Part shown: positions 50,020 through 64,000 of the stretch, piece by piece
Layout of the letters: every line of letters begins with the position of its first letter
How positions within the stretch are numbered: position 1 is the stretch's first letter
From: an uncultured archaeon
GTDB lineage: Archaea > Aenigmatarchaeota > Aenigmatarchaeia > QMZS01
Direction: 5' to 3'
DNA length: 64,000 nt
NCBI GenBank assembly: GCA_964547015.1
Contig: CAZJKT010000003.1
Location: 1,154-65,153 of the forward strand
Translations under genes and position numbers: made by a program
The notes under the pieces: model-generated
Told to the model about the DNA's origin: nothing
Seen by the model: the letters and a program-made list of their open reading frames with translations, nothing else
Database searches by the model: none

Positions 50020-50874
50020 TCAGAAGCCCAAAACATCATCTCTTGGCCCTTTATGCTCTTTTTGAGGCTCTTTTTCCTCGCCGGTTTTTGTCGGCTCTTC
50101 AGGCTTATTTTTGGGGATTTCTCGGCTCTCTTGAGGGATTTTTTGGAATTCGGTGGAGGAGGCACTCTCTAATTTTTTGGGCAGCCGCTCATCTATTGGA
50201 GTATCTATATCAGCCTTTTCTTGCGAACCCATTTTTTGGCTTTCTCCTGTCATGACGGACCCCTGATTATTATTTCTCAGTTCTTCCTGAGTTTCTCCCT
50301 TTGGCTCTTCCCCCAAGTCTTCCCTTATAATCTCCCTTGGCTCTTCTTTCACACCCTTACTTGGCTCTTCCATTACACTATCTCTTACTTCTTCCCTTGG
50401 TTTCCCCTCCATATCTTCCTCTTCCTCTTCTTTTTCTAATTCCCTCCTCTCGGGCCTTTTTATCCCCACACCAGTCCTTTCACTCGAAAAGGGCAAATGG
50501 ACTTCTTTTCCCGAAATGCTCAGCATTGTTTCTCCACTTTCCCCTTTTTTTGAGAGGATCCTAATTTTTCCAAAAACCCTGAGATTTAATATAAGGCTGT
50601 TTGCTACAAAGTTTTTTATTCGGCTTGCCCTTCCGTTCATATAGCAGTATATTTCGACGGCAGGCCTGCCTTCAAATTCCGAGATTATGCCCTGAAGCAG
50701 AGCATCTCCCCCGTCAAGAATCTGCTCTGAAGTCTCAACAGCTTTTATTTGCCCAAAACCATGAATCATGCCCGAATTTATCCCATAAGCTTCAAGAAGG
50801 CTTTGCAGGTCATTGGAGTTTTCATTGTCGGAAAGCTTAAGAAAAATGTGGTCGCCCTCTCGCGCGGATATCAT
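50020..50874 (-). CDS. Hypothetical protein with a highly acidic E/K-rich low-complexity C-terminal half
   Basis: A structured N-terminal domain of about 140 aa, followed by EEPxxE-type repeats. Confidence 0.4.
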   Translation of the reverse strand: MISAREGDHIFLKLSDNENSNDLQSLLEAYGINSGMIHGFGQIKAVETSEQILDGGDALLQGIISEFEGRPAVEIYCYMNGRASRIKNFVANSLILNLRVFGKIRILSKKGESGETMLSISGKEVHLPFSSERTGVGIKRPERRELEKEEEEEDMEGKPREEVRDSVMEEPSKGVKEEPREIIREDLGEEPKGETQEELRNNNQGSVMTGESQKMGSQEKADIDTPIDERLPKKLESASSTEFQKIPQESREIPKNKPEEPTKTGEEKEPQKEHKGPRDDVLGF

Positions 50875-53070: not shown

Positions 53071-53610
53071 CTATTTGTCGTCGCTTTTGCCCATCACAAA
53101 ATACCACATCGCCGCAACCACAAGAACGATTAGGGCTAGAGCCATTGTGTCCGAGCCAAACCTTGAGTAAAAGCTTACGCCTCCGCCAAGCCAGCCTCCG
53201 ATAAGGAACCATGCGAATACCACCAAAAGGATGAGAAATATCCAAGCCCGAGGTCCCTTCTTGTTCCTAACATCCCCAAGCGCGCTGTTGTTTGCAAGGG
53301 CCATTACAAGCAAAATTCCCAACATCACTATCAGGAACATTGCCATAGTCCCGGCTGACTGAGTGAAGAAAGCCCCCATTGTTGCCCCAAACGGAGTGAA
53401 TGCCGCAACGAAGAAGCCGAGGGTTAAAGCAACTATTCCGTTAATTTTGTCGCCATCTCCATCTCCAAAGGGCTTTACAATGTTGAGCAGCCCGTAAATC
53501 ACCGCAAAGGACAAAATCCACGGAAAGATTACTTCATAGAGCATTCCGCAAAGGTTCCCTGAAATCCCTAAGTAACTGCAAATCGGTGCATTTCCTATGC
53601 CATACGCCAT
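53071..53610 (-). CDS. Polytopic membrane protein, copy A of a tandem duplicate pair
   Basis: Shares almost identical N-terminal and core sequence with 53723-54316 (MAYGIGNAPICSYLGISGNLCGMLYEVIFPWILSFAVIYGLL ... AMFLIVMLGILLVMALANNSALGDVRNKKGPRAWIFLILLVVFAWFLIGGWLGGGVSFYSRFGSDTMALALIVLVVAAMWYFVMGK). Confidence 0.5.
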   Translation of the reverse strand: MAYGIGNAPICSYLGISGNLCGMLYEVIFPWILSFAVIYGLLNIVKPFGDGDGDKINGIVALTLGFFVAAFTPFGATMGAFFTQSAGTMAMFLIVMLGILLVMALANNSALGDVRNKKGPRAWIFLILLVVFAWFLIGGWLGGGVSFYSRFGSDTMALALIVLVVAAMWYFVMGKSDDK

Positions 53611-53722: not shown

Positions 53723-54316
53723 TTATCCGGGCACAGCTTCTTTTGGTTTCTGCGGTGAAGCGCCCTCGTTTTTGCCCATCACAAAATACCACATCGCCGC
53801 AACCACAAGAACGATTAGGGCTAAAGCCATTGTGTCCGAGCCAAACCTTGAGTAAAAGCTTACGCCTCCGCCAAGCCAGCCTCCGATAAGGAACCATGCG
53901 AATACCACCAAAAGGATGAGAAATATCCAAGCCCGAGGTCCCTTCTTGTTCCTAACATCCCCAAGCGCGCTGTTGTTTGCAAGGGCCATTACAAGCAAAA
54001 TTCCCAACATCACTATCAGGAACATTGCCATAGTCCCGGCTGACTGAGTGAAGAAAGCCCCCATTGTCGCCCCAAACGGAGTGAATGCCGCAACGAAGAA
54101 ACCAAGGGTTAAAGCAACTATCCCCGAAATCTTTTTGCCTTTTTTGTCCTTATCGTCTTTATCGAAAGGCTTGACTAACAAAAGAAGGCCGTAAATCACC
54201 GCAAAGGACAAAATCCACGGAAAGATTACTTCATAAAGCATTCCGCAAAGGTTCCCTGAAATCCCTAAGTAACTGCAAATCGGTGCATTTCCTATGCCAT
54301 ACGCCATAATTAACAT
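53723..54316 (-). CDS. Polytopic membrane protein, copy B of the tandem duplicate pair
   Basis: As above. It differs in a charged loop (KPFDKDDKDKKGKKISGI versus KPFGDGDGDKINGI) and in the C-terminal tail. Confidence 0.5.
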   Translation of the reverse strand: MLIMAYGIGNAPICSYLGISGNLCGMLYEVIFPWILSFAVIYGLLLLVKPFDKDDKDKKGKKISGIVALTLGFFVAAFTPFGATMGAFFTQSAGTMAMFLIVMLGILLVMALANNSALGDVRNKKGPRAWIFLILLVVFAWFLIGGWLGGGVSFYSRFGSDTMALALIVLVVAAMWYFVMGKNEGASPQKPKEAVPG

Positions 54317-56596: not shown

Positions 56597-59500
56597 TTAG
56601 CTTACTCCAACTTTCTCAAACAAACGAGATAGGTAATCCCTATCGCTGGTCAAATAGATTCCCCGACTCTCCGGGTCATTTAGAATATCTTGACTTAATT
56701 GCTCCTTGGGTGTTTGAGAGACAATAAAGGAGTATAGCTCAAAAGCCTCATCTGGATGCTTCTCCCTTAGATTACGCTCAATTGCCTTGACATATTTGTG
56801 GAAATTAATTTTTTCCCAATCCACATGGTTAAGACCCTTGGGATCAATAAAAATAATCTTTTGTTTCGTGTCTTCCAGTATCCACAAAATGAAGTCCGGG
56901 TAGAAGAGTTCAGTCTCAAGATAATAACCATAGCCGATTCCCTCATGATTTCTGAGAAGAACCACCTTTCGACCACCAATATCCTTTCTTTCCAGAAATA
57001 TCCTCAAGGCATCAATAAACGATTTTTCGCCGTCATTTAGTCCAGCAGGATGAAAGGTGTAGCTTGCAGTCCCCCCCTCCTGTGCCACAAGAAGAGGATA
57101 ATAAGCGTGCTTGTCAAATCTGACACAAAGCTTATTCAGAGCATTTTTAGAGCCAGGCGTATCCTCCAAAACGGTCTGAATATCGTCAAAATCTATTATT
57201 CTGGACTTGGTTTTGAGAACTGCCTCCAAAACACCTCTTATTCGTTCATCTACGCTTCCTTTAATCGCGCCTTTCTCGTCGGTAAATATCTTCATCTGAC
57301 AGGTAGTTGGGACTTTGGACTCAGAAAGCTTTGCAAGAGACATTCTCTTCTCATAGTATCGCCGCAAGGCAAGAGAGTAATTTTTGTTCATTGCTTTCGT
57401 TATGACCTCAAGGTATGCTCTCTCCAATAGGGTCCTGGCAACAGAAATATCTTTTCTAGCATTAAGATATGCCATATCCCCATAGACAGATACCATTGCG
57501 TCGTTCGAAACCAAGTAGTTTTTTAGTTCTTCGGCGGAGCAAAGAGAAAGATTTTGATAGTTCTTGACACGTTTGTGTCGCCTCAACTCGGTGAGAAGTC
57601 TTTCCCAGTCAACTAAATCCAAATATTCTTCAGTAAAGATTGGGCAGGATTCGGGGCGGGTTTTTGGAATGTCCTTAGAATCAGAAGTCTTGCTATTCAT
57701 CGCAGTTATGTGGGGATTAAGATCCAGCCTTATTTCTGTCGCAAATGGGAGCATAGATACCAATTCCGTTCGTCGGAAACTGCCCTCCACATCCCTCTCA
57801 CGCTCAATACAAAGTAGGTCACTAAACTTAACCGAATCAGGCATTCTCAGGTGGATATTTATCTCCTTTTCAACGTAGAATTCAATGTCTTCTGCAAGCT
57901 CCTCTCTAAATGCCTCCATATAGCTGGCATCTATCCCAAAAACATTAAGGGTTTCAAGAAGGGGGAGGTATTTTTTCAGCTCCCCACTAATCGGGCGGAG
58001 GTCTTTTGAACTGCGCTTCATGCTGTTCTTGTAGCCGTGGATGCGAACGCCTCGCCCAAACAGCTGTATGGCCGAAACTCCCCGGGTTTTCGCAAAATTC
58101 ATCAAAAGCATAGAAGAAATTCGGTAATTGTCCCAGCCCTCTATGAATTTCTTTGCACCGATAAGGACATTCACGGGTTGCTCTTTGGGTGTACTCAGTG
58201 CCTTAAATTGTGACTTTGAAATAGAATTTGTGCGTTGCCGTACAGTATTCAGTTCTTTGTTTGCAGTCTCCTTCGCTTTCTTTAGGATTTTCTTGTCATT
58301 TCCCTTTCCTACATAAATCAGCCCAAAATAGGTAGCATCCGAGTCCCCATATTTAAGCCCGATTTCGCCGTCAGAATCATGAATGTCTTCCATCACAAGA
58401 AGCGAGTCATTGTAACCGGAGTAAAAGACCGTTTTGAACAAATCATCAAAAAGCGCTTTGGTGTCGTTCTTAAAGGTATTTTGAAGAAGTTCTCTCAAAT
58501 AGGGGAAATGATCCTGGAAGAGCGGGTTTCCCCGCTCATCCTTAAGAGGCAAATTTCCAGAAACCAAAAAATTCTCAATCGCCTTGAGGTAATGCTCCTT
58601 TTTCAGCTTCAGGCGGTTAAGGAATACCACAAATTTGAAGATGTCTGAGCTTATTTTTTCGTCCAGATTGTCCTTATCACTCTCCACTACTCTCGACCCC
58701 ACAAGAATCCAGAGCGGGTTTTCGATAAGGTGGGTAGTTTCTGCTTCCCTGCGATTTTCGAGGAAAAGCTTTTTTTGCTGATAAAATGAGAGTAGATTGC
58801 CGAGCATTATGTTTTTCTCGTACTCGTCTTGCTTGCCCACATTTGAGATGAAATAATCCTTGCCATAGCCCTCCTTGTGGTAATATTTGTAGGAATAGTC
58901 AAAAAGGATGGTTTTCTTGTAATCTTTGGCTTCCTTTTTTTTCCCCACATCCCTGAATGTAGCGCTGTACTCCATCGTAAAGCCTTCCTTTGCAACCTTA
59001 GAGCGCATTTTAAGCCAGGCGTTTCCGCTTGCGCCCCTATGTCCCTCATCCACCAAAATCAGGTTTTTATCGCCAAAGGCGCGATAACTGATCGTTTTGT
59101 CCTTTGTAGTTTCGGACAGCTTGTTAATGTCAATAATTTTTATCGCCTTTCTGACAAAATTGTCCTTTTTTGCCATTATTGCCCTAAAACCCGACTTTTC
59201 AAATTCCTTTAGGTGCTGGCGTGACAAATCTTCGTTAGGGGTTATTAGGATAATGTTGTTTATCTCCTGGCGGTATTTCTCGGCGTAGTGCAGGTATTGG
59301 TGGATGTTTATATGCATCACAAGGGTTTTTCCTGAACCCGTTGCCATCCAGTAGCACAGTTTTTCTAGGTCGTCCTGGAGGTAATCATCAATATCTGTGT
59401 ATTTTTCCGGGATGTTGTTTTTTCCCTGATTCAGAAATTCGATAAACTCCCCAAGCTCCTGCTCTTCCTTCTTTTGGAAGTACAAATCGAGGTAAATTTC

Positions 59501-59833
59501 GGTTATAAGGAGAGCGGCATACTGAAACACCTTAAACACGATTTCCCTCTTGCCGTTGATTTTGTCGATATGGTCTTTGATATTGAGGTCATATTCCCTC
59601 AGTTTTGCTTCATCAAGGATATTATAGGGGTAAGGCACATTTATCGCCCCAAAATAGTCCAAAATCGCCTTCATGAAGTTGCTCTGGTCGGACTCGAATT
59701 TGTACTCAAAATCCGCCTTTTCCTTTAGAAAGTCGATAAATTTGCAGGTATCGTCAAAACCCAGGCACCTTGGCAGAATCTTTGGAAGGACCAAAGACGC
59801 GCTCAAATTCTCATTAATCTCCTTTTTTACCAT
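56597..59833 (-). CDS. Res-like restriction enzyme subunit: SF2 helicase/ATPase with a putative C-terminal PD-(D/E)xK nuclease (Type III Res-like), 1078 aa
   Basis: Helicase motif I WMATGSGKTLVMH, motif II ILVDEGHRGASG and motif VI QLFGRGVRIHG. The C-terminal FYPDFILWI...KIIFIDPKG is consistent with a PD...(D/E)xK nuclease. The start overlaps the upstream methyltransferase stop by 7 nt. Confidence 0.7.
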   Translation of the reverse strand: MVKKEINENLSASLVLPKILPRCLGFDDTCKFIDFLKEKADFEYKFESDQSNFMKAILDYFGAINVPYPYNILDEAKLREYDLNIKDHIDKINGKREIVFKVFQYAALLITEIYLDLYFQKKEEQELGEFIEFLNQGKNNIPEKYTDIDDYLQDDLEKLCYWMATGSGKTLVMHINIHQYLHYAEKYRQEINNIILITPNEDLSRQHLKEFEKSGFRAIMAKKDNFVRKAIKIIDINKLSETTKDKTISYRAFGDKNLILVDEGHRGASGNAWLKMRSKVAKEGFTMEYSATFRDVGKKKEAKDYKKTILFDYSYKYYHKEGYGKDYFISNVGKQDEYEKNIMLGNLLSFYQQKKLFLENRREAETTHLIENPLWILVGSRVVESDKDNLDEKISSDIFKFVVFLNRLKLKKEHYLKAIENFLVSGNLPLKDERGNPLFQDHFPYLRELLQNTFKNDTKALFDDLFKTVFYSGYNDSLLVMEDIHDSDGEIGLKYGDSDATYFGLIYVGKGNDKKILKKAKETANKELNTVRQRTNSISKSQFKALSTPKEQPVNVLIGAKKFIEGWDNYRISSMLLMNFAKTRGVSAIQLFGRGVRIHGYKNSMKRSSKDLRPISGELKKYLPLLETLNVFGIDASYMEAFREELAEDIEFYVEKEINIHLRMPDSVKFSDLLCIERERDVEGSFRRTELVSMLPFATEIRLDLNPHITAMNSKTSDSKDIPKTRPESCPIFTEEYLDLVDWERLLTELRRHKRVKNYQNLSLCSAEELKNYLVSNDAMVSVYGDMAYLNARKDISVARTLLERAYLEVITKAMNKNYSLALRRYYEKRMSLAKLSESKVPTTCQMKIFTDEKGAIKGSVDERIRGVLEAVLKTKSRIIDFDDIQTVLEDTPGSKNALNKLCVRFDKHAYYPLLVAQEGGTASYTFHPAGLNDGEKSFIDALRIFLERKDIGGRKVVLLRNHEGIGYGYYLETELFYPDFILWILEDTKQKIIFIDPKGLNHVDWEKINFHKYVKAIERNLREKHPDEAFELYSFIVSQTPKEQLSQDILNDPESRGIYLTSDRDYLSRLFEKVGVS

Positions 59834-62796
59834 AAGCGCTTCCTCATTTCATCATAGATGTTACGGTAATTTTGTGAAACGAGACTGTCGCAGCTTATGA
59901 AAACTTCCTTGTATTTATCTTCCAGGAGCTTGTCCATGAATTTGCCGGCGGCTTTCTTTTCCTCGTCGTCCCTGCACGGAGGTCTCCAGATCGCTATGGC
60001 TTTTTCGCCTTTGTACCTGCCCTTTACGACAAAATATTCAGCGCCGTTGTCCTCCAGTTTCTCCATTTTGTCCACATCAAGCCCCATCAGGTAAATAAAT
60101 GTCTCGATTAAGTCCACGGTTTTTTCTGTTGTGGCACCGTCAATTTTCAGGTCAGAACCGCCCGACTCGTTCAAAACCTTGATTTTTAAATCAAGGTGCT
60201 TGTCCTCAGTGTCCACTCCAAGGAAATTCCCGGATTTGCCCTTGTCTATGCCATTTTGGAGCATGTATTTCAAAACATCGCCCTTTTGGTCGTAGAATCG
60301 GTTCAAATCCATCTGTTTGAAGACCACATTTTCAAGGGCGTCCTCGTACTGTTCCATTTCGTGGTACTTGAAAAAGCCGCCAATTGAATCCATATCCTGC
60401 GGCTTGCCGTCCTTCCAGTTTAGGGAGTAGAGCACTTTCTTTATCCTTGGATTGAGGACGGTATGAAAATAATCGCCCATTTCGACAAGGATGAATTTTC
60501 TCTTTCCTTTGTCCTCCTTGTTTAGAGAGATTACTGCATGTCCGGTTGTTCCTGAACCTGCGAAGAAATCCAGATTCACAGAGGCATCATTCATTGTCGC
60601 ACCAATCAATTGCTCATACAACGAAACGGGATGGCAATATGGAAAAAATAAATCCATACCATCTAAAAAATATTTACCACTTTTTGCATCTTTAATCACA
60701 GACGAAAGTTGTCGCTTTGAGTCAGAATCAAGATATACTTTTTTTTGTGGCTGAGTAGAATGATCTTCACCCCACAGGATTTCATCGTCATCTATCATCT
60801 TTTTCAGAGTTTCGGGTGTGCGAGACCAGCCATTGGTTGGGATAGGACAAGGTTTTTTTGTTTTGGGATGTATCAAAGGTATGTGGAATTTTGGGTCGGA
60901 CCTATATTCGGGGGCACCCATAGCAACTCCACGAAAAACTCTGCCATCATCTTCAAGAAGTCTATATGCTTTCTCACCTCCCGTGAGATCTGTTTGAGAA
61001 ATTATCCACCTTGAAAATTCTCTCCGTGAATCATCATTAACTCCACCCGAAAGCTCGATAAACCGCTTTGCATGCTCAATAATACTCAATACGGCACTAT
61101 TACGCATATAGACAGGTCCACTAAATTTGGAACGCCAAAGAATGTACTCGTGTTGCGTAGCGATTCCTTGTCTACCTAACATGGGATTCTTTTTATCCCA
61201 AATTATTGTTCCTCTACTAGGTAAACCAAATCTATCCAACATTACAAATAAAACCTCATATTCATTTTCATCGATATGACATTGAAAGACACCCTCCAAT
61301 GATAAAACCTTGGCAGACGATTCTACACACTGAGACATAAGAGATAGCCAACTTGAATGCCTGTAGTTGTTTTTATAAAGAAAACCACTAGTTTCAGTAT
61401 TATATGGAGGATCAATGTGTATGCAAGTTACCCTTTCTCTGTACTTCTCCTGCAAGAGATTGAGCGCCTGCCAGTTCTCGGAATGAATCAAAATCCCGTC
61501 AAGTTTCTCGTCAAGCCCCTCGATTTGCCCCAAAATCCTCCATTTGAAGCTATTTGAGAAGTTTTTAGTGTCAAGGGGCAGTTTTCTCCACTTGCCGTTT
61601 ATTTTAAGGTCGTCTTTGCCCTTGACCTCAATCCCAAAAAGGGCTTTCCACTCGGAAATCTGGGTCTTATTTGACAAGATTTCCGGAACAATTTCCTCCA
61701 AGAAATTTTCCCCGCAAAACTCTGAAATCTTGTCCAGAGTGATTACATAGTGGCTCTCCAAAATGAATTTCTTCTTCTCCCAGACTTTTTTCTTGAGATT
61801 CTCCAAAGCGTCGAGCTTCTCGATTATATTCTTCGAGACATCCTTGAAGACTTTTGCGACGATTTTGCGGTTCTCGCTAAAATTGCCCTTATCGTCAATA
61901 TAATCGTCCACATGCACGACTTCCTGATTTAAGTAAAAATTGAGTTGCCCTCTCAAAAACCCGCCCAGATTCTTGTGGATAAAATAATCCTCCTTGTACT
62001 TTCTCTGGAATTTGTTCAAAATGCCCTCCAGGCCCTCAATTTCGCCAACGGTCTCCAAAATCTTTGAAATCGCCTGCAAATTGAGGGCTTTTTGAATTTC
62101 TGCCTGATTCTTGCCAAGCTCCTTAAGCTCGTCTGTGACAAAAACCCGCTCAAAATTCACCTTAAGTTCGCCGTCATCCTCAATCGGGTTCTCCTCAGAA
62201 AGCATAAAACAGGTCATTCCTCCCTTCTGGTTTCCCTTTTTCTCCTCGACCTTGACCACCCGCAAAAGCACCGTGCGCCCGTTTGCCTCGAAACTGAAGC
62301 GGGAGTATCGCTCAGAAGTCTTAATATAATACATATCCTTTGTCACCCAGTGCAAATCTACCTCAGAGCCGTCATAAGGGATGAGATAAGTGCCCTCTTT
62401 GAAATAAAACTGCGAGATAAAATCGCCGTCCTGATAATACCTTGAAAAGAAATTTACAAGGTGCTTGTAAATCTCATCAGTAATATCGCCAATTGTGCCA
62501 ATTTCTTTCTTCTTTGCCAGCAAATCCTGGTATTTTTTAGAGTCCTCCAAAGAAACGCCGGCTTCGGTAAGGGTTTTTCTAAGCTCAGAAAGCTCTTTTT
62601 CAATGTCCTCGCCAAACTCCTTCCTGATATTGAGAATCCCGGTTTTCACAAGCACGGAAAGCTCCTTTTCGACAAATGCGTCGATTTCCTCATTTTTCTG
62701 CTTCATCAGGCGATAGACCCCAAAATCAAGGTCTTTATCGTCAGACCGAAACATTTCTCTTAACTGCTTTTTCAAACGGTTAAATGATTCATCCAT
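59827..62796 (-). CDS. Beta-class N6-adenine DNA methyltransferase (Type III Mod-like) with an N-terminal domain of about 450 aa of unknown function
   Basis: Motif IV CIHIDPPYNTE precedes motif I DFFAGSGTTGHAV (beta-class permutation). The ORF track starts at 62892. I prefer the internal Met (MDESFNRLKK, about 62796), which abuts the stop of the upstream gene. Confidence 0.7.
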   Translation of the reverse strand: MDESFNRLKKQLREMFRSDDKDLDFGVYRLMKQKNEEIDAFVEKELSVLVKTGILNIRKEFGEDIEKELSELRKTLTEAGVSLEDSKKYQDLLAKKKEIGTIGDITDEIYKHLVNFFSRYYQDGDFISQFYFKEGTYLIPYDGSEVDLHWVTKDMYYIKTSERYSRFSFEANGRTVLLRVVKVEEKKGNQKGGMTCFMLSEENPIEDDGELKVNFERVFVTDELKELGKNQAEIQKALNLQAISKILETVGEIEGLEGILNKFQRKYKEDYFIHKNLGGFLRGQLNFYLNQEVVHVDDYIDDKGNFSENRKIVAKVFKDVSKNIIEKLDALENLKKKVWEKKKFILESHYVITLDKISEFCGENFLEEIVPEILSNKTQISEWKALFGIEVKGKDDLKINGKWRKLPLDTKNFSNSFKWRILGQIEGLDEKLDGILIHSENWQALNLLQEKYRERVTCIHIDPPYNTETSGFLYKNNYRHSSWLSLMSQCVESSAKVLSLEGVFQCHIDENEYEVLFVMLDRFGLPSRGTIIWDKKNPMLGRQGIATQHEYILWRSKFSGPVYMRNSAVLSIIEHAKRFIELSGGVNDDSRREFSRWIISQTDLTGGEKAYRLLEDDGRVFRGVAMGAPEYRSDPKFHIPLIHPKTKKPCPIPTNGWSRTPETLKKMIDDDEILWGEDHSTQPQKKVYLDSDSKRQLSSVIKDAKSGKYFLDGMDLFFPYCHPVSLYEQLIGATMNDASVNLDFFAGSGTTGHAVISLNKEDKGKRKFILVEMGDYFHTVLNPRIKKVLYSLNWKDGKPQDMDSIGGFFKYHEMEQYEDALENVVFKQMDLNRFYDQKGDVLKYMLQNGIDKGKSGNFLGVDTEDKHLDLKIKVLNESGGSDLKIDGATTEKTVDLIETFIYLMGLDVDKMEKLEDNGAEYFVVKGRYKGEKAIAIWRPPCRDDEEKKAAGKFMDKLLEDKYKEVFISCDSLVSQNYRNIYDEMRKRLW

Positions 62797-62797
62797 T

Positions 62798-64000
62798 CTA
62801 AATTGCCCTCTTGAAGTGCTTGCACATAAATCTATATGGGCAATTTTTACAAAAAAGCTTTCCTTTTCCGGTTCCGCAATATTTTTCGCCAATTACCGCC
62901 TCAGAAAACTCATTCAGGACCCTCTTTGCTTCAGAACCGTCTTCAACAGGAAATTCTGCGTCCGAAAGCCGGAATTTTTCCTCCTCAATTGGATAGGCCA
63001 CAGCCCGATCCACCTTTTGCCCGTCCTTTCGCAGGGCGTTGGCATAGAACTTAAGCTGAAGGTCCACATGGGTCTCAGATATGGCTTTGAGCTTTCTTGC
63101 CTTGAAATCCATCAAAACTACCTCGCCGGCCTTATTCTCAAAGAGAAAGTCAGTCCGACCCCGAATCCTTATTCCTTCCATCATCACACTTACTGGGGAC
63201 TCAATCGAAATCACGTGCCCAAGCTCCTTTCCCATGAAATCATTATACCTATCCAGGCTTCTTCGGATTTTGTGGCGAAAAATCTCATTATTCTTGCCAA
63301 GATCCACCCAGGATTCATCCAGAATTGCCTCCAGTCTCTGACCGTCAACACAAGAACCTCTACCCATATCCACATTTAGCTTGGCTAAAGCGTTATGGTA
63401 TATTCTGCCAACTTTTTGCTGGAAAATCTCCTCCGCTTTGAAACCATACACATAGTTTATCTTGAAACGCTCTGGGCAGTCAACAAAAGTCGAAATAGCC
63501 GAAAAATCGACCAGCTTTATCCCCGGCTTTTCTTCGGGTTTCGGGCTGATTTCCACATTCGCCAATCTATCCTCGCTAAAGTCTGAAATGTGCCCGTCAA
63601 AATCAGAGATAAATTCTGAGGGGTTTGAAGTTTTCCCGCTATCATAAGCATCAAAATGGGTTAAAAAGAGTGCATCCCTGGCTCTGGTAATCGCAACATA
63701 AAAAAGGTTCTCCTCCTCTTTTAGGGGTGAATATTTCTCATAGAGATAAAACTTCTCAGGTATATTTATCAATTCAGAAGGGAGTTTCGATTTCGGTATA
63801 CGCCTCTTAGTAAGAGAGGGAACAATTACTACCGGAAATTCAAGCCCTTTTGCCTGATGAATATTCATCAAGTACAGTGAATGATTGTCCAGAACCTCAA
63901 AGCCGTCCGCCTTTTTATTAATATTGAGGTTTTCTGGAAAAGCACTCAAAAGCCTCAAAAACATCAAAAAATCGCCATTGCCATACACGAAGACAAAATC
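62798..64000 (-). CDS. C-terminal part of an SF1 UvrD/PcrA-like helicase fused to a Cas4/AddB-type Fe-S PD-(D/E)xK nuclease domain. The N-terminus lies beyond the window end.
   Basis: UvrD C-terminal motifs IHQAKGLEFPVVIVPSL and VAITRARDAL. The nuclease motif GRTDFLFENKAGEVVLMDFK. A four-Cys cluster, DCPERF ... CGTGKGKLFCKNCPYRFMC, typical of the RecB-family Fe-S nucleases. The frame stays open to position 64000. Confidence 0.7.
   Translation of the reverse strand, partial: DFVFVYGNGDFLMFLRLLSAFPENLNINKKADGFEVLDNHSLYLMNIHQAKGLEFPVVIVPSLTKRRIPKSKLPSELINIPEKFYLYEKYSPLKEEENLFYVAITRARDALFLTHFDAYDSGKTSNPSEFISDFDGHISDFSEDRLANVEISPKPEEKPGIKLVDFSAISTFVDCPERFKINYVYGFKAEEIFQQKVGRIYHNALAKLNVDMGRGSCVDGQRLEAILDESWVDLGKNNEIFRHKIRRSLDRYNDFMGKELGHVISIESPVSVMMEGIRIRGRTDFLFENKAGEVVLMDFKARKLKAISETHVDLQLKFYANALRKDGQKVDRAVAYPIEEEKFRLSDAEFPVEDGSEAKRVLNEFSEAVIGEKYCGTGKGKLFCKNCPYRFMCKHFKRAI

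Follow-up and report, generated by a model that had tools for sequence, protein, structure and literature searches.

A UvrD-Cas4 helicase-nuclease gene joined to long-form Type III-like mod and res genes in an uncultured archaeon: a divergent locus of the Cas4-UvrD-RM kind

Type III restriction-modification (R-M) enzymes are the textbook example of a machine in which two proteins read the methylation of DNA and cleave DNA that is foreign. Three closely packed genes near one end of a 64,000-nucleotide stretch of DNA from an uncultured archaeon (contig CAZJKT010000003.1; hereafter the window) raise the question of what a helicase-nuclease does when it is encoded together with such a pair. Gene 1 encodes a UvrD/PcrA-type superfamily 1 (SF1) helicase fused in a single polypeptide to a predicted Cas4-like PD-(D/E)xK iron-sulfur (Fe-S) nuclease, here called UvrD-Cas4. 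Gene 2 encodes a long-form Type III-like Mod, a predicted beta-class N6-adenine methyltransferase. Gene 3 encodes a long-form Res-like protein with a superfamily 2 (SF2) helicase-like ATPase and a predicted C-terminal PD-(D/E)xK nuclease. Its gene content makes the locus a divergent, metagenome-derived example of Cas4-UvrD-RM, a kind of locus known from genome context alone. The three genes probably form an R-M module in which a Type III-like Mod/Res pair is supplemented by an end-processing UvrD-Cas4.

In an open reading frame (ORF) check of the window, all three ORFs were intact from end to end on the minus strand. They are laid out as follows:

62798 to beyond 64000, minus strand: gene 1; the frame is open up to the window edge, and the part inside the window is the C-terminal 400 amino acids (aa).
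L001:7120-9999: complete gene 1 on a second contig, 959 aa.
62794-62800, minus strand: gene 1 stop and gene 2 start, with TAG (62800-62798), one base and ATG at 62796 (TAG-a-ATG).
59827-62796, minus strand: gene 2, ATG start, 989 aa.
59827-59833, minus strand: gene 2 stop and gene 3 start, ATGGTAA, a 7-nt overlap.
56597-59833, minus strand: gene 3, 1078 aa.

Chance ORFs can be dismissed, since over 5,000 homologues were counted for each of the three proteins at E<1e-10. The sequence-only reading of this DNA had reported overlapping or abutting gene ends, and the 1-nt gap and 7-nt overlap bear this out. It had also proposed that gene 1, cut by the window edge, be completed from upstream sequence. 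An exact-sequence search with gene 2 returned 21 metagenome contigs carrying the same locus, one of which (L001) contains gene 1 complete and yielded the full protein.

Conservation was assessed in 80 genome loci with gene 3 relatives, in further loci from contig look-up and in L092, which was obtained by a metagenome scan. A long Mod lay directly upstream of a long Res in nearly all loci having upstream DNA. Eleven loci in all had the order UvrD-Cas4, Mod, Res, among them the locus of the window itself (L001) and L087, L089, L171, L172, L173, L075, L092, L177 and L175. Res proteins from the triples of L087, L089 and L173 were 46-50% identical to gene 3. Other triples came from a Woesearchaeota metagenome-assembled genome (MAG; L171), a Methanosarcinales MAG (L075), Methanosarcina sp. 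1.H.A.2.2 (L177; the same three genes in the same arrangement, Mod and Res both long) and Methanosalsum zhilinae DSM 4017 (L175; Mod split by an insertion sequence). Flanking genes varied among the triples and included transposases, AbiEii, a DrmA-like/DUF87 island and integrase fragments. The metagenome scan was run with the gene 1 alignment and used generic UvrD peptide patterns; the matches listed were mostly ordinary UvrD helicases. Among these listed matches, L092 was the only new triple, and L101, L113, L148 and L162 had short-form Type III neighbours.

A neighbour-joining tree of Res from 90 loci, though a rough method, clearly placed all UvrD-linked loci except L063 in one clade. UvrD-Cas4 was found in every member of this clade with enough upstream sequence. 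Pairwise identities among nine triples were strongly correlated between gene 1 and gene 3 (r = 0.98), and also between gene 1 and gene 2 (r = 0.88) and between gene 2 and gene 3 (r = 0.90); the pairs are not independent, and p-values for these correlations are not to be taken literally. From conserved order, the Res clade and co-divergence, the three genes are a module inherited as a unit. The coupling of Mod and Res to an extra helicase-nuclease, as first read from the window, is thus real and is conserved in relatives with differing flanks. The same reading had allowed that genes 2 and 3 might be an ordinary Type III pair beside an unrelated repair helicase. Genes 2 and 3 did match Type III profiles, but gene 1 is not such an unrelated helicase, because the arrangement is conserved in relatives.

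Several individual loci showed peculiarities. The insertion sequence in the Methanosalsum locus (L175:10780-14856, CP002101.1) carries a DDE_Tnp_1 transposase and lies in Mod; UvrD-Cas4 and Res are intact, and integrase fragments flank the locus. Two UvrD-PDDEXK genes are arranged in tandem (L172:1-1730 and L172:2296-5148) upstream of a single Mod/Res pair. A 200-aa protein with Csa3_N/CARF-like Pfam matches, which may be a regulator, is encoded 17 nt upstream of UvrD-Cas4 at L171:1614-2216. Directly after Res, a convergent RadC-like (JAB/UPF0758) gene occurs in four members of the UvrD-linked clade (L089:10266-10928, L090:5687-6361, L171:11242-11949 and L174:3228-3890); in the window this place is held by RtcB. 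The exceptional locus of the Res tree, from an Anaerolineae MAG (L063:3118-5100), has a 660-aa plain UvrD without nuclease domain before a long Mod/Res pair, whose Res is not part of the UvrD-Cas4 clade.

An association of this kind has been described before. UvrD-Cas4 fusions form the largest branch of PF12705 Cas4-like proteins, with a single origin (Hudaiberdiev et al. 2017, BMC Evol Biol 17:232, PMC5704561). Their commonest neighbourhood was reported to be Type III Mod and Res, with Dcm and Vsr as a second context, and stand-alone copies were noted too (PMC5704561). An ancillary defence role was predicted and a RecB/AddB-analogous role in promoting recombination was proposed; Methanosarcina mazei proteins are tagged 'Cas4-UvrD-RM' in the supplementary tree (PMC5704561). 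The suggestion of a novel defence system, made from the window alone, finds no support, as the association was already published (Hudaiberdiev et al. 2017, PMC5704561). The window locus shares with the published kind the UvrD SF1 and Cas4-like PF12705 fusion with Fe-S cysteines, the Mod and Res neighbours, mesophilic archaeal hosts including Methanosarcina, and the predicted ancillary defence role. The fusion protein, the conserved Cys and nuclease residues and the conserved adjacency to Mod and Res that mark Cas4-UvrD-RM were all found here. The present data differ in that long-form and short-form Mod/Res partners are distinguished, a split that is not made in the text of that paper. No other paper using the term 'UvrD-Cas4' was found, and a 2025 review of restriction-modification biology mentions no UvrD, Cas4 or SNF2 partners.

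The domain calls that had been made from the window for all three proteins were upheld by Pfam, PADLOC and motif positions. For gene 1, the part inside the window matched UvrD_C and PDDEXK_1/Cas4 in Pfam, with Cas4 (PF01930) at 6.7e-08. The full protein matched UvrD-helicase (9e-66), UvrD_C (3e-36), PDDEXK_1 (3.6e-23) and Cas_Cas4 (1.8e-07). PADLOC returned just generic GajB-helicase profiles and Cas4 (1.6e-13), and the Cas4 matches were under the family cut-offs (TIGR00372, 49 bits vs a cut-off of 65). An alignment of 18 gene 1 sequences with 27-54% identity was used for residue conservation and as the source of the profile for a PDB search. With this profile, the helicase region matched PcrA (8.5e-129) and UvrD (2e-109), followed by AddA (2.5e-62) and RecB (1.9e-36), and GajB structures were also found; the C-terminus matched the AdnAB nuclease and Cas4 (4ic1). 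Among other sequences found, the closest relative of gene 1 was at most 55% identical, and the closest Res was about 50% identical.

Walker A (G31, G33, G35, K36) and DExQD (259-263) of gene 1 were invariant or nearly so in the 18 sequences. The features of gene 1 inside the window are:

63680-63859, minus strand: HQAKGLEF and VAITRA, region of SF1 motifs V/VI; H607, Q608, A609, K610, G611 and R665 are invariant.
62822-63478, minus strand: nuclease core with Fe-S ligands.
63464-63478, minus strand: CPERF, with the first Cys (C734).
63149-63160, minus strand: GRTD.
63101-63109, minus strand: DFK.
63044-63058, minus strand: QLKFY.
62822-62851, minus strand: CxxCx5C (CKNCPYRFMC).

In the same alignment the nuclease residues D843, D857, K859, Q874 and Y878 were invariant, as were the cysteines C734, C943 and C952, and C946 was conserved in at least 90% of sequences. 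This corresponds to the Cas4/AddB pattern C...CxxCx5C. The four-cysteine cluster originally proposed was correct as to the Fe-S type; its choice of ligands was not, as the first Cys that it quoted (C934) is not conserved and the distant C734 takes its place.

Gene 2 matched N6_N4_Mtase in Pfam and the MTase_III model PDLC03646 of PADLOC at 1.6e-194. Its motifs are located as follows:

61402-61413, minus strand: motif IV DPPY, aa 462-465; D462, P463 and P464 are invariant in the Mod alignment.
60643-61125, minus strand: aa ~558-718, candidate target-recognition domain, unaligned in many relatives.
60550-60564, minus strand: motif I FAGSG (S-adenosylmethionine-binding), aa 745-749; F745, G747 and S748 are invariant in the Mod alignment.

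DPPY precedes FAGSG, which is the beta-class motif order. The best solved relative by sequence was EcoP15I Mod (4zcf_A, 2e-33). A Foldseek search with an AlphaFold model (predicted local distance difference test score, pLDDT, 77.7) likewise returned 4zcf (5e-24), followed by 6k0w and 7dsu, all of them solved Type III Mods. In hhalign, aa 373-814 of gene 2 covered nearly all of a 566-aa Type III Mod. Gene 2 is thus a standard Type III Mod core with extensions of ~370 aa at the N-terminus and ~170 aa at the C-terminus. The size of this Mod, at about 990 aa, had seemed far larger than typical. It turned out to be usual for its family: over 7,800 proteins were counted at E<1e-10, the majority 1000-1050 aa in length, and the PADLOC MTase_III model for them has 1057 positions. 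Alignments of Mod by tblastn were split into residues 1-557 and 719-950 of the query in many loci, and into 3-575 and 678-989 in L087. The segment aa ~558-718 is probably the target-recognition domain, given its place between motifs IV and I as in Type III Mods.

The family of gene 3 counts over 7,200 proteins. Gene 3 itself matched ResIII and SWI2_SNF2 in Pfam and the PADLOC REase_III model PDLC03654 (2e-115). The following motifs were located:

58043-59338, minus strand: whole span of the ATPase motifs, all invariant in 61 sequences.
59324-59338, minus strand: GSGKT, aa 166-170.
59039-59050, minus strand: DEGH, aa 262-265.
58958-58966, minus strand: SAT.
58130-58141, minus strand: EGWD.
58043-58066, minus strand: QLFGRGVR, aa 590-597 (family QxFGRGVR).
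56834-56902, minus strand: nuclease motif YPDF (978-981) ... IDPKG (996-1000), then the invariant K1008.

At the nuclease positions, D980 and K1008 were present in 61/61 sequences, and position 997 was D or E in 61/61. Position 999 was K in 28 and H in 33 of the 61 sequences, with K in the window's clade. An AlphaFold2 model of gene 3 (pLDDT 80.8) gave generic SF2 matches in a fold search. Sequence searches of the PDB with gene 3, as a protein or as a profile, gave no match, and hhalign aligned 39 columns around motifs II-III of gene 3 with EcoP1I Res at a probability of 45%. Only a thin link therefore ties gene 3 to canonical Type III Res. Gene 3 is Res-like by architecture, only remotely related to those proteins and not a close member of the EcoP15I family.

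Compared with known systems, the operon resembles classical Type III R-M (EcoP15I, EcoP1I) in having mod then res with overlapping ends, a beta-class Mod homologous to EcoP15I Mod, and a Res with SF2 ATPase and C-terminal PD-(D/E)xK nuclease. It differs in the extra N- and C-terminal Mod domains and in the long Res, which shares just the motif II-III region with EcoP1I Res and has no solved sequence relative. Classical Type III systems consist of mod and res only, whereas the window's clade has a conserved third gene upstream. Like RecBCD, AddAB and AdnAB, gene 1 joins an SF1 UvrD-like motor to a RecB-family nuclease, with a Cys cluster of the AddB/Cas4 type. Unlike them, it is a single polypeptide without a partner subunit and is encoded inside an R-M operon, and its helicase is much nearer to PcrA/UvrD than to AddA or RecB in the E-values given above.

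From the window alone, the operon had been said not to match BREX, DISARM or Gabija cleanly, and PADLOC agreed: gene 1 had just the generic GajB and Cas4 matches, while genes 2 and 3 hit Type III profiles. Gabija resembles the operon in that the gene 1 helicase matches GajB profiles and structures, as any UvrD-family helicase would; GajB, however, has no fused Cas4-like nuclease, and the operon has no GajA OLD-family nuclease. Gabija was rejected because PADLOC detected no GajA among the three proteins and the GajB matches were limited to the generic UvrD C-terminal region. DISARM, which combines a DrmA helicase and the DUF1998 protein DrmB with a methylase, was rejected for the window operon, as no DrmA or DrmB (PADLOC) and no DUF1998 (Pfam) were detected in the three proteins. 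BREX, in which PglX occurs with PglZ and BrxC, was rejected on the grounds that Mod is beta-class and not gamma-class like PglX, that the three proteins had no BREX profile matches and that RtcB and housekeeping genes are the neighbours. MANTIS/Gao_RL, considered for its methyltransferase and helicase-nuclease, is described as a four-gene system of the AAA+ ATPase MtsA, MtsB, the methyltransferase MtsC and the helicase-nuclease MtsD; it was rejected as well, with no such PADLOC matches and no AAA+ ATPase gene in the operon. ARMADA relies on PglX-like and YprA-like proteins, neither of which the operon encodes.

UvrD-Cas4 is not the only partner of long Mod and Res. Among 68 loci with enough upstream DNA, 43 had a third helicase gene for a protein of ~950 aa in the same position (SNF2 in 34, UvrD in nine), and 25 had none. 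The 34 SNF2 loci are bacterial, from many phyla, with a 950-970-aa SNF2 helicase encoded directly upstream of long Mod and Res (for example L009:3815-6709, L014:3898-6771 and L085:3535-6414; 31 more loci lie within L007-L086). These partners matched SNF2-rel_dom and Helicase_C in Pfam and the PADLOC DrmD model PDLC02619 at ~1e-205; no nuclease domain was detected in them by Pfam. The SNF2 loci thus resemble the window operon in the Mod and Res families, in gene order and in the size and position of the helicase, and differ in having an SF2 SNF2 ATPase without recognised nuclease domain in place of an SF1 helicase-nuclease. In the Res tree they form a separate clade, and partner type follows Res phylogeny. 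Assignment of the SNF2-partnered loci to DISARM was rejected, as ORF clustering of these loci showed that DrmA and DrmB are not conserved neighbours. A description of an SNF2 plus Type III-like three-gene system was not found in the literature, the coverage of which was incomplete, so this is no proof of novelty.

In several bacterial loci, unrelated genes that resemble lodged defence genes sit beside the long Mod, either separating it from Res or immediately preceding it (L012:4438-5622, L056:8768-9805, L035:4629-6319, L015:7448-9472 and L042:6977-9814). They include genes for Fic, a YhcG/DUF1016 PD-(D/E)xK protein, an AAA_21 ATPase with DUF4276, a GNAT protein and a PHP/SMC-like ATPase.

Conversely, UvrD-Cas4 also occurs with other partners. 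A second kind of triple (L101:4262-10860, L113:1657-8263 and L162:9923-16703) begins with a UvrD-Cas4 of 895-917 aa, ~25% identical to gene 1, followed by a short Type III Mod of 566-625 aa (PDLC03642, ~1e-145). The last gene encodes a Res-like protein of 735-746 aa that shares with the long Res just helicase motifs V-VI. The presence of UvrD-Cas4 before these short Type III pairs argues that it assists Type III-like systems generally, in an ancillary role, as Hudaiberdiev et al. 2017 had also concluded from genome context. UvrD-Cas4 is thus combined with two unrelated Res families, the Mods being homologous, and a downstream role or a contact with Mod would fit this better than an adaptation to a single Res.

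Together, these data suggest how the three proteins might act. By homology to EcoP15I Mod, the long Mod would recognise a short asymmetric site and N6-methylate one adenine on one strand, thereby marking self DNA. Judging by its domains, the Res-like protein, an ATP-driven SF2 motor with a nuclease, would work with Mod, communicate along the DNA from unmethylated sites and cut the invader. UvrD-Cas4, as a putative 3'-5' SF1 helicase-nuclease, may then load where Res has nicked or broken the foreign DNA and unwind and degrade it, which is the least certain step. Degradation by UvrD-Cas4 would make restriction irreversible, and the job done in bacteria by RecBCD or AddAB would be done by the module's own enzyme. 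Several points weigh against this end-processing role. Most long-form Mod/Res loci lack UvrD-Cas4 (34 with SNF2, 25 with no partner), which means that the long-form family as a whole does not need it. Stand-alone UvrD-Cas4 genes lie in housekeeping surroundings in Methanothermobacter tenebrarum (L176) and in L091. A biochemical or genetic study of any Cas4-UvrD-RM member was not found in the literature search. Finally, post-cleavage degradation is one of several roles that fit the same data.

UvrD-Cas4 could instead be an obligate subunit or even the main effector nuclease, recruited or activated by Mod/Res once these have found unmethylated sites, and the long-form family would then be a class apart that needs a third motor. 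The third helicase in 43 of the 68 loci, a partner type that tracks Res phylogeny, the tight co-divergence of genes 1 and 3 (r = 0.98), the distance of this Res from EcoP15I Res and the replacement by H of the classical nuclease lysine in half of the family all point this way. Such an obligate role is nevertheless unlikely. No partner gene is present at 25 loci despite ample upstream DNA, Res residues D980, D/E997 and K1008 are invariant, and the SNF2 partner has no Pfam nuclease domain, so that Res must be the nuclease in the SNF2 loci. Tentatively, and somewhat doubtfully, the long-form Mod/Res could represent, instead of a size variant of Type III, a separate methylation-based defence class that needs an exchangeable third motor for restriction and in which the mechanism of Res is unlike EcoP15I sliding. 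The motor would be UvrD-Cas4 in the archaeal clade and an SNF2/DrmD-like ATPase in the large bacterial clade.

A role in protecting the host is improbable, though the architecture parallels RecB and AddB and a RecB/AddB-like recombination role was proposed by Hudaiberdiev et al. (PMC5704561). UvrD-Cas4 would in that case process restriction breaks in the cell's own chromosome, arising for instance after replication or when the system is newly acquired, and enable recombinational repair like RecBCD/AddAB. Sequence gives no distinction between this and an attack role, and recombination partner genes were not linked in any locus examined. That gene 1 is an ordinary repair helicase-nuclease beside an independent two-gene R-M system is disfavoured and very improbable. 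The stand-alone relatives (L176, L091), also noted in PMC5704561, speak for it; against it stand the 1-nt gap to Mod, the same order across loci with unrelated flanks, the single Res clade of the linked loci and the lockstep divergence. Equally remote is a contribution to CRISPR adaptation, in which the Cas4-like nuclease would trim restriction fragments into pre-spacers and thereby connect innate with adaptive immunity. Its matches to Cas4 profiles (PF01930, 6.7e-08; PADLOC, 1.6e-13) and the Csa3/CARF-like gene directly upstream in L171 are consistent with this idea, but no cas1/cas2 or CRISPR array lies beside the operon in the window or in the related loci, and the Cas4 matches fall short of the family cut-offs, as the 49 vs 65 bits for TIGR00372 illustrate.

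Throughout one clade, then, an R-M operon includes its own helicase-nuclease, inherited in lockstep with the restriction subunit. If the third protein finishes off cleaved DNA, as favoured here, the module would show how restriction is made irreversible in organisms without RecBCD/AddAB, and the largest branch of Cas4-like nucleases outside CRISPR loci would have a function assigned to it. The SNF2-partnered bacterial clade suggests a general rule by which long-form systems recruit an extra motor, and it would be worth counting systematically how motor partners are exchanged across the family. Genetic methods are established for the genus Methanosarcina. As Methanosarcina sp. 1.H.A.2.2 carries the module, the role of the third protein is open to experiment.

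GC content of the operon (0.41-0.45) is no different from that of the remaining window, and the operon is neighboured by RtcB and housekeeping genes. STT3, diphthamide synthase and RtcB genes (window and L001) mark the DNA as archaeal. RtcB lies downstream of gene 3 on the plus strand and is convergent to it. On the other side, outside the window, a small ORF of 152 aa upstream of gene 1 (L001) was considered as a fourth component and rejected, since the other triples have no conserved copy. Contigs L002-L006, from several independent samples, all begin at L001 6816-6830, ~290-305 bp upstream of gene 1, and this common start point hints that strains vary, or that a repeat lies, at the operon's left border. 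No Rfam family was matched anywhere in the window. Elsewhere in the window, tandem genes on the minus strand (53071-53610 and 53723-54316) encode small multi-pass membrane proteins that are 93% identical, with most differences located in a short loop of charged residues and in the tail at the C-terminus. A further minus-strand gene (50020-50874) encodes a 284-aa protein whose C-terminal half is long, of low complexity, highly acidic and rich in E, K and P.

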